Of a stretch of DNA of 64,000 bases, positions 6,401 to 30,400 are shown in pieces. The DNA is from Tubiluchus corallicola (taxonomy: Eukaryota > Animalia > Priapulida): the NCBI GenBank assembly GCA_030141605.1, contig JAQGDQ010000621.1:62001-126000 (forward strand), written 5' to 3'. The position numbers and the translations under genes were made by a program. Under the pieces are notes generated by a model. It made no database searches, was not told the origin of the DNA, and saw nothing but the letters and a program-made list of their open reading frames with translations. Numbering within the stretch: the first letter of the stretch is position 1; every line of letters begins with the position of its first letter.

Positions 6401-9400
6401 TTAATACAATTTTTATGCACACATAAAGATTTTTGCATAATTTTAGTGAGAGAAAGAGGAAAGTGTTCGTTGAGGAGGAGGATTACAACTGGAAAGACAT
6501 GTTGAAACATGTGGAGGATGAAGAACTTGATGATGTGGCAGAAGAAGACATCATTAAACTTAGATCTGTAATCATTGATGCTGAAGCTGCCGGAGATTTG
6601 GAACCACAAGAGGTTGAGGTATGAGTGTAATAATGTGCAGTAGTTGCTGCTTAAACGAAGACAAAATGATTTTTCTTACACTACCCCATTTTCAGTCCTA
6701 CAATAAGCGCACATTTTTACACAATTAATACTGTAAAAGCATTTCTGATAATTAAATAATACATTAAAAACTTAATTAATGGAGGATGAGCCCCCATATT
6801 GATAATATCACAATCTAACATAATTTTCAACAGCAAAAATATGCCATGAGCATTTTGCGTGTGTTTGTGAAGTGCAGTGCTACTGTAAGATATTCAGTAT
6901 GTTGTACTAAAACTAAGCAAGTTTTATTATAAAAATTCAAATTTCAAATTTACTGCTGTGCTCATTCTTGAGCTGTTGAACGTGTGTAGTTCATCACAAA
7001 TTAACACATTTGATCTGAGAGGTACAGCACCTATTTTTGTGCCATGCATGTATCAACGAAGAACTAGTGGCATGAATGTGAAATTGTGTTTGTGTGGTAA
7101 TAATTCTTTCATGTAAGTCATTTTTGAAAAAATATTATGTTTCTTTTCAATATTTTAAAGGGTAGATTGTTTTGACCTACAGTTTAAGATTAGGTCCAGT
7201 TTTGCTTTAAAAAATGTGCTTTTCTATTTAGTGACCTCACAGTTGCACTCTATTATAAGCTAGATACAGTCTTACAGCATTATCCATTATTAAATCATTA
7301 ATCGTGAAAACAAGTTTACATATAATTCATCTATTTTGTAATCTTTTTACAGAGTCAACAGTTTTAAATAAAACGTAATTTTTTGGAGTAAATTGCAATT
7401 TTCATGAATTTATGAGCATTGTTAAAAAACGGTTGTATATCAATGAACGGACAAATCTCCTTATAGCGCCTACTTTGGGACTACGTAAAAGTTGGCGATA
7501 AGTGATTTTGACATTATAATATGGTGCTTTGATACATGCATGTCTGTGCAAATATACTTTTGTTTTGCCAAAAGTGTGGGCGTTAAGCGAGGGCACTTTA
7601 AAGGGGGCATTATAACTAGGTTTGACTGTATTCCACAAAGTGCTGTTGTCTGAGCCTTATGTGCATAAAAAACTGCATTTGTATTATGTAAAAATTGTAT
7701 GTTGTGAGTTAAAACTACATATACAAGTATTTATCTGATTAACTTTTGATTACTTTATTTATATCTGATTACTAATACAAAATGCTTCAAAGCTGTACCA
7801 ACACTAAGTTGCATTTTTTTTATCTGTAGGCTATAATTTCTCTTAAAATGAAATTGGAAAAGTTACCCACAGAAGAAGAAGACGTGCCAATATCGGAAGA
7901 CGTACCCGAGGAAGAAGTACCTCGGGAAGCAGAAATCTTCGTGCCAGAGGAAGCTGAGATAGTTGAAGGTAGGATAATTAGTGGTTTGAAGATTACTGAT
8001 ATTGCTGTGCATTTGAAGCAAGTTAATTGTTAATTTTTTTAATTTATACTGTCCTCCAAAGAAGTAAATTCTGAAACTTAAATTTATTTATTTGAATCTT
8101 AAGAAGAAAAGGTACAGTTTTTCATTTCAAAAGAGTGATGGCTTTAGTGTATCAAAAAATGGGACCAGTTCGTTTATTAAATTTGTGAATAAGGCTTGAG
8201 CTTACTGTGTGCCACTTGAAGATGTTTTTGTTGTCTTTTGACATTTCATTAAGTTAAATAGGGCTTTGTGGCCATCGGATGCTTATTAGTGCTGTGACAA
8301 TTATTTTACTTTTGACTGAATGAAGCTTTCGTATCGTTCTCGAGCGTGCGAGAATTTTGTATTTCAAAAATCTTTATTTATTAGCATAAACATTTTTATT
8401 TAATGATTTTATATTAGCGGTGCTTCTGTGCGTGCCGTTGTTTCTTTTTATTCTTCTTATGTGTGTAAAATTCACAGCAGCTGTTGTATAAACGGCAATG
8501 GCAAACAAACGGATATGTGCACAATCATTTTGAATGTTTAATTTGTATTGTCGTTTATAAAAAATTTAGTGGAGGAAACACTAAAGCCGAAAAAGAAGAA
8601 GAAAAAGAAGAAGAAGGAGGAGGATAAACCAGAGGAAGTAGCCGTGGAACTTCCTGTAACTGAAGCCATTGAAGTGCCTGAGGAGGAAGTAGTCATGGAA
8701 CTTGCGCCAAGTGTTCCTGAAGAGATCACAGAGCAAGTCACAGAAGACCTCGTCCTCATACCTCGACCTGCTGAGGCTCCTGAAGAAGTCGAGGCTGTCG
8801 AGGTTGTTGGCGACTCTGTTCTGTTGCCTGTTAAACTTGAGGAACCTTTGGCACCCGAGGAGGAAGAACTGACAGAAGAGCTGCTTATCCTTCCTAAACC
8901 CGTTGAGGAAGTTAGTGAGGATGTGGTTGAGGAAGTTGTAGACCAGACAATAGAGATTGAAAAAGGTACATTAACCAGTTGTTTAAGATTTGTTTTGCGG
9001 GAATTCATTTTTTTGGATCTACATATTTCCAAATGAAGCGAAGATGCTACTGTTGTATTTCTTAATTTAGTTTTCCTATAGTAATTTTTTGCTTGCTTCA
9101 TTTATCGCACTTTCTGCACATTTAAGTTCATTTTCTTAAGTTTGCCAATGTCAGTGGCTCCTGTGCGTTTTCAATTATTTTCTCATTGGTGTTGATCGTA
9201 GCATTTTAAATTCTGTGTATGCTGTTAAGTTATCCCTCACTTCAGCAACTTTGCCTTTCCAGTTAATTATAATGGAATTTATTTCTGCCATTTTCTGAGT
9301 TTATGGCTTGAAGTTATCAAACCTAATTTAGCATCATGTTTTTCTAATATTATGATCAGTGTTTCCTGGCTCCTAATTATGCAAAATTCATTTGAAATTT

Positions 9401-27400: not shown

Positions 27401-30400
27401 GTAAAGAAATGTAACAATGACAAAACAAACAATTATAATAGACTAAGAATGCATGAACGATATAAACTTAACACGGATAAAAATGATAAAAGAGCAACAC
27501 GTATGGTTCAGAATATAGATAATTAAGAATATGGATAAGAAACTGAGAAGGACAAGAAATAAGTTCACAAATGTAAGAATAAAAGTTAAAATATTGTGAT
27601 TAGCTTAAGTAGTTGAAATTTATCTAGATCACTGTTTCCCAAATTTGTGCTCAGAGTAGCAAATTTCAAATGAATTTTGCATAATTAGGAGCCAGGAAAC
27701 ACTGATCATAATATTAGAAAAACATGATGCTAAATTAGGTTTGACAACTTCGAGCCATGAACTCAGAAAATGGCAGAATAAATTCCATTAAAAGAAACTG
27801 GAAAGGCAAAGTTGCTGAAGTGAGGATAACTTAACAGCATACATAAAATTTAAAAATGCTACGATGTATGACAGTGAGAAAATAACTGAAAAACACAGGA
27901 CCCACTGACATAGGCAAATACTAGAAATTGTTAGTCCATTTTGATGAAAATCCAAGACGTCCAAGATGAAAATCTTTTTCTCTAGTGAGTATAGAAATGA
28001 AACAAGAGGTGGTTACAGAAGAGGTGCCCGAAGAAGAAGCTATTCTCATTCGTAAGAAGCCAGAACTCCCTGCAGAAGAGGTAGCTGAAGAAATCACAAT
28101 GAAAAAGCCAAAATTAGAAGAAATTGCACCAGAAGAAGGTATGGTGAACTTTCTTTTCATAATACAGTAAACTTGGCGTAACTCAAATCCAACCAGACCG
28201 AAAAAACATTAAGTTAGGCAATGTTAATCATTTTTTAGAATAGAAACTCTAAACCCCTCCTCTAGATGGCGAGCTAAATAGAAAGCAGAAAGTCAACCCT
28301 TCTATGCATAAACGACGAGATTTGATGACAATTACATCAAGAATAATAAATTATGTAGTGAAACACGATTATTTTATGTTACAAAAGGACACGTACACAA
28401 CACTGTTACAGCAATGTGGCAGTCGTGCTAACAATGTCTTGCGTACTGTGGTTCAGTATGTGCATCCAATAATCAGGGGGGGTGCAACTTCTAACACATC
28501 GGAATTTTGTGGAAAGATGATTATGTTTTTGAGTTGTGCAAAACTTTTTATTTTTCCACGGTACAAATTCCATTTTTGAGTTAGGTGAAGTAAATTACAT
28601 GTAATTTTAATTAAATGGTCCATAATTTTTTATTGAGTTAGGCAAGATTTTGAGTTATATATTTTGAGTTAACCGTGTTTTTTGTGGGACAGCGGAGGAT
28701 TTCGTTCTTTCTGCTGAAACTCTTTGAGTTAGGTGAAAATTTGAGTTATGCGATTCTGAGTTACGCAAAGTTTACTGTATAAAACATTTTTGTGTTGGCA
28801 AGGAAGAAATATACAAAATATAAAATTGAATTGCATTTTTTCATTTTGTTTTATAGTGGGACCTTCTTACGTTGGTATTTCTCAGTCAGAAATGTTTTGC
28901 ACCTTTTTGTAGATTCATGTAGTAAAGCATTTCACAATTTTTATTAAAAGATAGCTTACTTGTCTTGACTTTATTTTATAACTTTACGTAATTTCGCAAT
29001 AGTATCTCAGAGTGTGGTATTTGAATTGTAATTATTGTAAAGCGTTCTAAAATGCGCGACTTAATAGTGCCGTATAGAAATGTAAATAAACTTAAGTTTG
29101 ATCAACCCATGAACAAAAATAATAAAAAAATTTCAACAAACAGCAATCGTGAGAAACAATTTCAGTGCCTGATGCTATTCTGATCAGCTGCAGACAAAAC
29201 CACTAGGACCACCTGTTATAGACTACTAGGCGTTCTTGTTGTCGTATATCACACTCATACTGTCGTTAAAACTGTTGGCTTTTTCATTTTTCACCACACG
29301 GCAAGACAAGTGGTGTGGTGGGTTTCAGTTAACCAATTTACTAACCAATTCTTCTTGATGGAGTAAAATGACTTCTTATACTGGGTAACTAGCCTAGGTA
29401 GAAATGTGTGAAGGATTATTATTCATAACCCTCATTCGTATTTCCTTATCATTCGTAATCCAGTGACAGTTGGATTAGCTCGCAAACCTGTTAAAGAACA
29501 TTTGGAAGAAGTGGAAGAGGTTGTCCATGTGAAACCATCAGAAGAAAAACCGGAAACTGTGGCAGAAGGTATTTAATCTAACTACTTTATGTGCTAAATG
29601 GCTAAGTAATAATTGTTGTGGCATAGTGTTTGTTATTGCATAATTAATGGGTGGGTCGTCTGGATGTTGGGAAAGACACAAGACATGATGCCACATGATA
29701 CAATCGAATGTACCATATGAAGTACTGAGAGTTTATGGAAGGAAAACATGAATGGGGGCTAGTGACAGTATATTGTACAGCTACACACATTTACGTCAAT
29801 TAAAGGGAGTTCAATATCAAAACCTGAATCATTATGAAAAGGCATTTTTAAGTAATGAAAACAGTAAAGTTTATTGCTGAAATGGCACCAGTTGCAAGAT
29901 TATATGTGAAAGAGAAAATAGTAATTGAAATTTGATGGGACTTATTAGCTCATGAATCATTAACCTCCTTCCACAGGAATAAAGCAGCAGCTGACTTTGT
30001 GTCCGAAAAGGTTTGAAGTCCCATTTTGAAAATCTACATTGATATAGCCGTGACATAGGTATAGCTAGACAGTCTCACCTCAGTTTCTGCAAAGAATCAC
30101 GTTTCTGGTACGCTTCATGTGGGCACTAAGTCTGTCTAAACAGACTTACTCCCGCCAGATAATTTGAGTATGAGCATAAAAGGAAACCAAGTTGCCTTCT
30201 TTAAAGTCCTGTACATGGCTTACCTGCAGTTTACCTTCACTAGCATTCATCAGATTGCAAACGAGACAACATGGCTGTTGCCTTGAGCTTTAGCAATAAC
30301 CAACGTACTTTCAAAATTCGATCACAGGCACTATTTATAGTTATGAGTTAAACTTGTAATTGCCATTACATTTGCTGATAGCTTAAACATGCATCTATCA

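Follow-up and report, generated by a model that had tools for sequence, protein, structure and literature searches.

Two introns of a titin-like gene in the priapulid Tubiluchus corallicola carry stretches of about 550 nt that are reverse complements of each other, and between them lie 19 exons of the PEVK region. The question raised by this arrangement is whether the two arms pair in the pre-mRNA and cause the exons between them to be skipped, as the initial annotation of this DNA proposed, or whether they are a remnant of duplication at the locus. The window analyzed here is the whole 64,000-nt stretch of contig JAQGDQ010000621.1 (positions 62,001 to 126,000), and all coordinates refer to it. 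It was compared with DNA contigs (X1) and with spliced RNA contigs of relatives at ~90% exon identity (runs X5 and X6, 0.01 of window words each).

The downstream exons of the host gene (37672-63437, forward strand, limits approximate) encode Ig I-set and Fn3 domains, with Pfam Ig or Fn3 matches in 4/7 and 13/13 exon pieces. The best solved-structure matches are titin, the closest Fn3 relatives are 33-47% identical, and the gene extends beyond the window. The bracketed exons consist to 56.5% of P, E, V, and K, the threshold for titin-like regions being >40%. By its sequence, the predicted product is a titin/connectin-like giant muscle protein with Ig, Fn3, and PEVK parts. A protein search for relatives or isoforms of exon 27988-28137 found none among 270 candidates; for exon 6448-6618, no match was found among 1.84 billion representatives or among 598 pattern matches in metagenomes.

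In the exon model, all PEVK exons lie on the forward strand. Exon 8570-8965, which supplies the outer 5′ splice site and would be kept in a skip, is a short paralog of six large exons (protein similarity z 3.6-10.5) and is joined to 10240 in X6. The block then comprises the six large paralogous PEVK exons of 717-786 nt (10240-16318; three of their joins are seen in X6 and at least two in X5), a giant PEVK exon of 3,075 nt with a 216-nt internal period (18787-21861; an X6 contig starts beside it at 18786), and twelve short PEVK exons of 75-261 nt (22629-27350; several joins in X6), among them seven 174-nt tandem copies that are 75-95% identical. Donor 27350, at the end of the short set, adjoins the right arm and is joined in X6 to exon 27986-28138, which belongs to the 174-nt family though diverged (z 9.5-10.3 with two of its exons), carries the outer 3′ splice site, and would also be kept. 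The initial count of 19 bracketed exons holds; their size is 9,609 nt (3,203 aa) and not 9,660 nt, a mismatch that probably comes from the giant-exon acceptor, which was chosen among in-frame AGs. The block makes up about 88% of the PEVK region here (9,609 of about 10,926 nt). Its removal would indeed be in frame, as had been pointed out, but with phase 1-1 shared by every one of the 21 exons in 8570-28138, the frame survives whichever of them are skipped and the argument is trivial.

The strongest inverted match in the window by self-BLAST is 9141-9504 against 27557-27918 (90.7% over 365 columns, 491 bits), and the top inverted match in each of ten shuffled windows did not exceed 41.9 bits. 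Local alignment extends the pair to 9129-9674 (left arm, forward strand, inside intron 8966-10239) and 27353-27930 (right arm, reverse strand, inside intron 27351-27985), with 455 matches, 17 G-U-type, 16 A-C-type, 38 transversion, and 72 gap columns, which confirms the ~550-bp pair. Donor 8965 and the start of the left arm are 163 nt apart, and 55 nt separate the end of the right arm from acceptor 27986, in agreement with the offsets of ~160 and ~55 nt given initially. On the inner sides, the left arm ends 565 nt short of acceptor 10240, and the right arm opens <20 nt past donor 27350 and takes up nearly the whole of its 635-nt intron, most introns nearby being 128-137 nt long. The arms lie in the first intron after the first large-exon member and in the last intron before the last 174-nt-family member, and each repeated exon family keeps one of its members outside the pair; this placement is one among 1,485 possible intron pairs in an approximate 55-intron model, and the observation is post hoc.

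Along the arms, identity does not decay smoothly outward as first described. The best change-point fit has three steps (19/88, 10/220, and 52/228 differences), that is, a plateau of ~95% identity over 220 nt (4.5% divergence) between flanks at ~78% (22% and 23% divergence). The plateau lies at 9216-9435 on the left arm (forward strand), and its partner, read from the arm alignment and partner positions, at 27626-27843 (reverse strand). It is non-random, with a longest perfect run of 86 nt (9317-9402) that was reached in 0 of 10,000 permutations. The other three inverted pairs in the window are all uniform in identity (p 0.13-0.68), and a pair of repeats in direct orientation likewise has a high-identity centre (p 0.009). 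An excess of G-U over A-C differences, the signature of a conserved sense-strand duplex, was sought in the arm differences and is absent: the G-U-compatible differences noted initially are present without enrichment, at 17:16 across the arms and 5:6 in the core. If three quarters of such differences were G-U, these counts would have probabilities of 0.003 and 0.034, an argument that weakens if A-C pairs are edited. Transversions account for five of the 10 differences in the plateau. Relative to the window, an X1 contig carries two further transversions in the plateau (9221 and 9241), which break pairs unless compensated at the partner sites; the one X5 contig over 9221 is thin (depth 2.9, about 70 nt estimated), too little for a conservation call. 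The plateau fits gene conversion as well as it fits selection.

Base composition suggests the direction of copying. The left arm is T-rich (AT skew −0.228) like the native introns of the block, 18 of the 19 others being T-rich, and the right arm is strongly A-rich (+0.269); the latter is therefore likely to derive from first-intron sequence copied in inverted orientation. The right intron has no homology above z 3.5 to the short neighboring introns. This skew is also accommodated by a purely neutral history, which we regard as quite possible: a piece of the first intron would long since have been copied backwards into a short intron, conversion would later have re-homogenised the middle 220 nt, and the block would be included on splicing with arms that pair without regulated effect. 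The step profile with similarly diverged flanks and a 4.5% centre, the lack of G-U excess, and the transversions in half of the plateau differences all speak for such a history. The nearby 174-nt exons are 75-95% alike and the locus therefore recombines with itself, and typical conversion tracts measure a few hundred bp in the available part of one survey (PMC3961182). What a neutral duplication leaves unexplained is why the copy came to rest in the final intron of the array, where 55 nt separate its outer end from the acceptor, and how conversion could still act between copies that were already ~22% apart.

The arms could also be two insertions of an old, small family of dispersed repeats that came to lie in opposite orientation by chance, which we consider improbable. 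The window does hold other repeats, namely three long inverted pairs (71-75%) and the direct pair (82-91%), and family members at ~78% identity would miss the 80% likeness cut-off at which X1 depth was taken. However, no third copy of the arm was found within the 64-kb window, and X1 depth is near background, the bins of the two arms having 14.5 and 11.4 and most bins about 7-20. Under a simple depth model two copies would give 14.4 and five would give 20.2, and the repeat starting at 28163 reaches 430 in its bin, with 6-8 loose-end contigs. Contig depth is not copy number, and on this rough measure the arms look low-copy. Searches at the arm boundaries bear out the initial report of no TIR or TSD: the best TSD is 6 nt, compared with 5-8 nt at random boundaries, and the best terminal match is 9/14 on the left and 12/14 on the right, the latter T-rich and the best of 6,561 boundary pairs. 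Neither a tRNA-like part nor an Rfam match was found in the arms, the longest stop-free stretch in them is 81 codons, and the native intron skew of the left arm also argues against an inserted element.

If both arms are present together in the pre-mRNA, the duplex would be very stable, with a predicted core energy of −437 kcal/mol, compared with −112 and −93 when the two whole arms are folded separately. The opposite-strand duplex is predicted to be equally stable (−440 vs −437), and two other inverted pairs in the window give energies of comparable size (−527 and −421). The right intron by itself has no unusual folding (z −1.0). Of the consensus motifs for Rbfox, QKI, MBNL, and CELF, the Rbfox hexamer alone shows a slight enrichment, with three occurrences across the two arm introns (p 0.04 without correction, five patterns tried), which is not taken as evidence. 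A weak acceptor at 10240 was considered and rejected, the site scoring 11.0 on the window's own matrix, which is biased by paralogs.

Of the six sequencing runs listed in a search with the window, none is recorded as an RNA run that contains it, which says nothing about expression. The RNA contigs of the relatives, of which tissue and library type are not on record and from which rare variants were dropped, contain the long form alone among the 15 of 24 joints listed. Both inclusion joins, 8965-10240 and 27350-27986, are present in X6, the latter spanning at least 78 nt on either side, and their standing alone in that list also favors a neutral history. Neither the skip join 8965-27986 nor the back-splice 27350-10240, both of which the switch hypothesis had put forward, is found among these 15 of 24 joints. 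Contig graphs break where competing joins are abundant, and since the contig over 27350-27986 is unbroken, an abundant competing join at 27350 in the X6 sample is argued against. Gaps in X5 and X6 cover over most of the arms carry no weight.

These joints bear as well on whether pairing mainly yields back-splicing, either as a circle from 27350 to 10240 or as smaller circles inside the block. The layout, with an arm on each side of the block and the right one less than 20 nt from the donor, is typical for circular RNAs, and titin circles are reported in the accessible part of one study (PMC5959250). We hold this outcome to be distinctly unlikely: the left arm ends 565 nt short of acceptor 10240, and the X6 contig runs unbroken through donor 27350, although circles would go unseen after poly(A) selection. 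A 9.6-kb circle would also be very large for a circular RNA. Least credible is a DNA flip-flop, in which a crossover between the plateaus flips the intervening 18 kb, turns the 19 exons antisense, and lets 8965 splice to 27986, long and short titin being alleles or cell states; the geometry permits it, the product is in frame, homogenised inverted repeats recurrently invert a 24-kb region in yeast (PMC9731477, as far as the excerpt goes), and short-word contigs may be unable to phase across the 86-nt perfect run, but the yeast repeats there are 4 kb against 220 nt of near-identical sequence here, and no strand-changing joint occurs among the 15 of 24 joints listed.

The explanation that we tentatively prefer is an RNA bridge for partial, muscle-specific skipping of the 19-exon block, and it is nearly tied with neutral duplication kept alike by conversion. 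In the bridge model, inverted copying of first-intron sequence would have produced the right arm. Provided that intron 8966-10239 is still unspliced after a further 18 kb of transcription, the arms could zip up, so that 163 nt on the donor side and 55 nt on the acceptor side would separate the outer splice sites, a usual intron length for this gene, with the end of the duplex set against donor 27350. In some muscles or stages, and in part of the transcripts rather than all, 8965 would then be spliced straight to 27986, giving a short, stiffer titin that lacks 3,203 aa, or about 1.1 micrometre of contour length if each residue adds 0.35 nm. Gene conversion would be the likely source of the long perfect tracts, and selection would retain them. 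The fullest version, a single-copy, non-transposon duplex that arose by inverted intron duplication, was kept by conversion and selection, loops out the 19 exons, and sets spring length, is more doubtful.

The RNA switch first proposed is thus upheld in part: the low copy number (rough), the site at the array edges, the predicted stable duplex, and the precedents stand; no skip or back-splice join appears among the 15 of 24 listed joints, G-U differences are not in excess, and the frame argument is trivial. All-or-none behavior is unsupported, as nothing points to it. Also counted against the bridge are the X1 transversions at 9221 and 9241, the direct pair with a similar centre, the acceptor 10240, which is not weak, the 17:16 ratio, the equal opposite-strand energy, and the similar energies of the two other pairs.

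Block removal of thousands of PEVK residues is currently ascribed to splicing proteins in the parts of the literature at hand. If the duplex drives skipping, it would represent cis-acting RNA control of titin stiffness, with ~3,200 residues removed in one splice, and such control could arise in one step by inverted intron duplication and then be kept by gene conversion. If the arms are neutral, they warn against reading regulation into every long intronic mirror pair that has a perfect centre.

Several known systems resemble parts of this arrangement. Inverted Alu pairs in primates are proposed to loop out exons (PMC13019944, PMC13019027), and such duplexes are reported to become rarer with more exons in between, which is against a bridge here. 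As with Alu pairs, long complementary elements are present in the introns flanking the 19-exon unit, and pairing is proposed to favor skipping. Unlike them, the arms are not recognizable mobile elements, look low-copy, and bracket 19 exons and 18 kb where the Alu cases described mostly concern one exon and a few kb; the skipping here is putative. Homogenised inverted repeats are also tied to human inversions in the excerpted source (PMC3961182). These and the yeast flip/flop share with our locus inverted copies ~20 kb apart that are partly homogenised, but the repeats described there are kilobases long and near-identical (PMC9731477, PMC3961182).

In ATE1 and Dscam1 the complementary regions are short conserved boxes. 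These boxes have been mutation-tested and govern mutually exclusive exons, whereas the 550-nt duplex proposed here is single and its arms have no alternative partner; our arms also show no G-U bias. The likeness is that intronic pairing over tens of kb, as in the R2R5 pairing over 30 kb in ATE1 (PMC7797038) and the intronic pairings of Dscam1 (PMC8791459, PMC12962786), both as excerpted, could bias isoform choice co-transcriptionally. Two further likenesses are Drosophila sallimus (sls), whose PEVK exons are removed by splicing in flight muscle (PMC12063666), and vertebrate titin with its RBM20-dependent skipping (PMC3575840); as might happen here, removal of PEVK exons from a titin-family gene would give a shorter, stiffer spring. 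In the available parts of these two papers, control is ascribed to muscle type or a protein repressor, and no bracketing intronic duplex is mentioned.

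The reverse-complementary intron arms described in the initial annotation were confirmed by self-comparison of the window, whose strongest inverted match is 9141-9504 versus 27557-27918 (90.7% identity, 365 columns, 491 bits; at most 41.9 bits for the best inverted match in 10 shuffled windows). Local alignment stretches the pair to 9129-9674 versus 27930-27353, with 455 matches, 38 transversions, 17 G-U-type and 16 A-C-type transitions, and 72 gap columns. The left arm lies in the intron after the donor at 8965 and the right arm in intron 27351-27985. A core with long perfect stretches had also been noted, and it stands, the longest perfect run being 86 nt (equalled in 0 of 10,000 permutations); the outward decay of identity, however, gives way to a best change-point fit of three segments, with 19/88 differences in 9129-9215, 10/220 in a central plateau (9216-9435) and 52/228 in 9436-9674. 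From this unevenness the pair appears to be an old duplication, ~22% diverged, with a younger-looking centre. Divergence is uniform (p = 0.13-0.68) in three further long inverted intron pairs (71%-75% identity by BLAST), namely 36070-36582/51442-51962 and 37194-37689/55020-55508, both with extra partial copies in the window, and 50180-50423/61573-61800. A direct pair, 28166-28779 and a copy near 58505, likewise has a high-identity centre (p = 0.009).

Downstream exons of the host gene encode Ig I-set and Fn3 domains; titin is the best match of the Fn3 exon among solved structures, and the nearest database relatives of this exon are only 33%-47% identical. Our exon model places 19 exons (9,609 nt, 3,203 residues; 56.5% P, E, V, and K, no stops) between donor 8965 and acceptor 27986. 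Their removal would keep the frame, as initially proposed, but this is not special since each of the 21 exons in 8570-28138 has phase 1-1. What is special about the arm pair is its position at the edges of expanded exon arrays. Six large exons have a short paralog just upstream, exon 8570-8965 (z = 3.6-10.5), and the 174-nt family has a diverged member just downstream, exon 27986-28138 (z = 9.5-10.3, two members tested), so the arms bracket expanded arrays and leave one member per family outside. Of the 1,485 intron pairs, the arm introns are one of few at such boundaries, by a post hoc argument, and a skip joining 8965 to 27986 would take out ~88% of the PEVK region flanked by Ig domains, with exon limits outside 8570-28138 being approximate. 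Within the block, the giant PEVK exon 18787-21861 has an internal period of 216 nt (72 residues, 86% identity). Two decayed copies of the 174-nt exon are found at 24908-25008 and 26014-26129; one meets a stop after 32 codons, and the other is out of frame, with 116 nt to a donor-like site.

The reading that we favor, tentatively, is that the arms serve as an RNA bridge for block skipping. If the right arm were transcribed before removal of the first intron, the arms would pair; the outer splice sites would then be 163 + 55 nt apart, and the duplex would end at the 27350 donor. The skip would take away ~1.1 μm of contour length, taking 0.35 nm per residue from PMC12063666. The core duplex is predicted at −437 kcal/mol, versus −112 and −93 kcal/mol for each whole arm alone, although such energy is not discriminating by itself because two other inverted pairs reach a predicted −527 and −421 kcal/mol. 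A kinetic obstacle is that the 8965-10240 intron, whose acceptor is not weak, would have to stay unspliced through 18 kb of transcription, which would probably require a muscle-specific factor.

Neutral duplication with subsequent conversion is also a possible explanation, which we place close behind the RNA bridge. Selection on a sense-strand duplex is expected to favor G-U over A-C differences, and the G-U-compatible differences noted initially are not in excess: the ratio is 17:16 overall and 5:6 in 9197-9504 (probabilities of 0.003 and 0.034 if three in four were G-U), in a comparison that would be blunted if A-C pairs are edited. The opposite strand is predicted to pair equally well (−440 kcal/mol). 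The flat shape of the 220-nt plateau and its equal flanks are consistent with a conversion tract, and PMC3961182 cites tract lengths of a few hundred bases. A contig from a DNA sequencing run (X1), possibly the window's own source, differs from the plateau by transversions at 9221 and at 9241, which would break pairs unless compensated in the other arm. The sequence signatures point to conversion rather than RNA selection. Conversion accounts for the alike centre, but says nothing on whether selection favors it.

That the arms belong to an old small repeat family is unlikely. A sensitive search with both arms gave no third copy in the window, neither terminal inverted repeats nor target-site duplications were found at the arms beyond chance, in line with the initial annotation, and no tRNA or Rfam family matches them. 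The right arm is probably an inverted copy of first-intron sequence, because it is strongly A-rich (AT skew +0.269) in an intron of 635 nt, versus 128-137 nt in most neighboring introns; the left arm is T-rich (−0.228), as are 18 of the block's 19 other introns. Contigs of four of the six runs listed were compared with 8400-28300 at 80% likeness. In the X1 contigs, the left-arm bin has a depth of 14.5 and the bin covering the inner right-arm half one of 11.4 (~7-20 in most bins); with two, three, or five copies, our crude depth model predicts 14.4, 16.3, and 20.2, respectively. Low copy number of the arms is a moderate inference only, since contig depth is not copy number and older copies less than 80% alike would escape. 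The last bin, with depth up to 430, is unreadable for the arm, as it holds the outer right-arm half together with a dispersed repeat (direct copies 28166-28779 and 58505-58961, 82%-91% alike), where four places from 28163 each have 6-8 loose-end contigs; the many X1 contigs with unrelated flanks there indicate a high-copy family. Elsewhere, a near-perfect (95.9%) 146-nt AT-rich palindrome, MITE-like or foldback, occupies 49995-50140 in an intron among Ig exons, and downstream introns contain two arrays of tandem repeats as well as one cluster of short, local inverted repeats (37856-38336, 60440-61181, 62752-63193).

Spliced contigs come from two runs, X5 and X6, whose exons differ by ~10% from the window and which therefore represent relatives; X6 covers exons only. 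The X6 joins include 8965-10240 and 27350-27986 plus many internal ones, and X5 runs on after 8965 into sequence like the start of exon 10240, so that the long isoform is shown in a relative. Neither the proposed 8965-27986 junction nor the 27350-10240 back-splice occurs in the 15 listed joints, out of 24, of these contigs, from which rare variants are dropped. A contig graph is interrupted wherever two abundant paths come together, and the 27350-27986 contig of X6 is unbroken, with at least 78 nt on either side of the join; a major competing join in that sample is therefore unlikely. X6 joins bypass both decayed exon copies; X6 has the joins 24642-26875 and 25838-26875, and another that runs backward from 25838 to 25355, and these three may reflect partial skipping, a copy number that differs in the relative, or misplacement of paralogs. 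A thin X5 contig over 9971-10262 (intron end and exon start; 42 differences, 13 gaps) indicates that introns of that relative can still be aligned. We consider it quite improbable that circles are the chief product of pairing. Inversion of the DNA itself, with the yeast flip/flop region as precedent (PMC9731477), is very improbable, no strand-changing joint being among those listed.

The intronic inverted repeat of this invertebrate-type titin gene is real, apparently low-copy, and strikingly placed; a role in block skipping is plausible and easily testable, and the joints listed from the relatives' RNA contigs show only inclusion. The arms would work like inverted-Alu loop-out (PMC13019944, PMC13019027) and the 30-kb pairing in ATE1 (PMC7797038), but are not classed with them because no skipped product is among the joints listed and the G-U comparison failed. 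In the literature searched, mainly open-access papers, no report turned up of a titin gene whose exons are bracketed by an intronic duplex; the one paper matching all five terms of one search concerns an antisense transcript. PEVK length variation in mammals is treated in PMC6469411, and PEVK exons of Drosophila sls are removed by splicing in flight muscle (PMC12063666).
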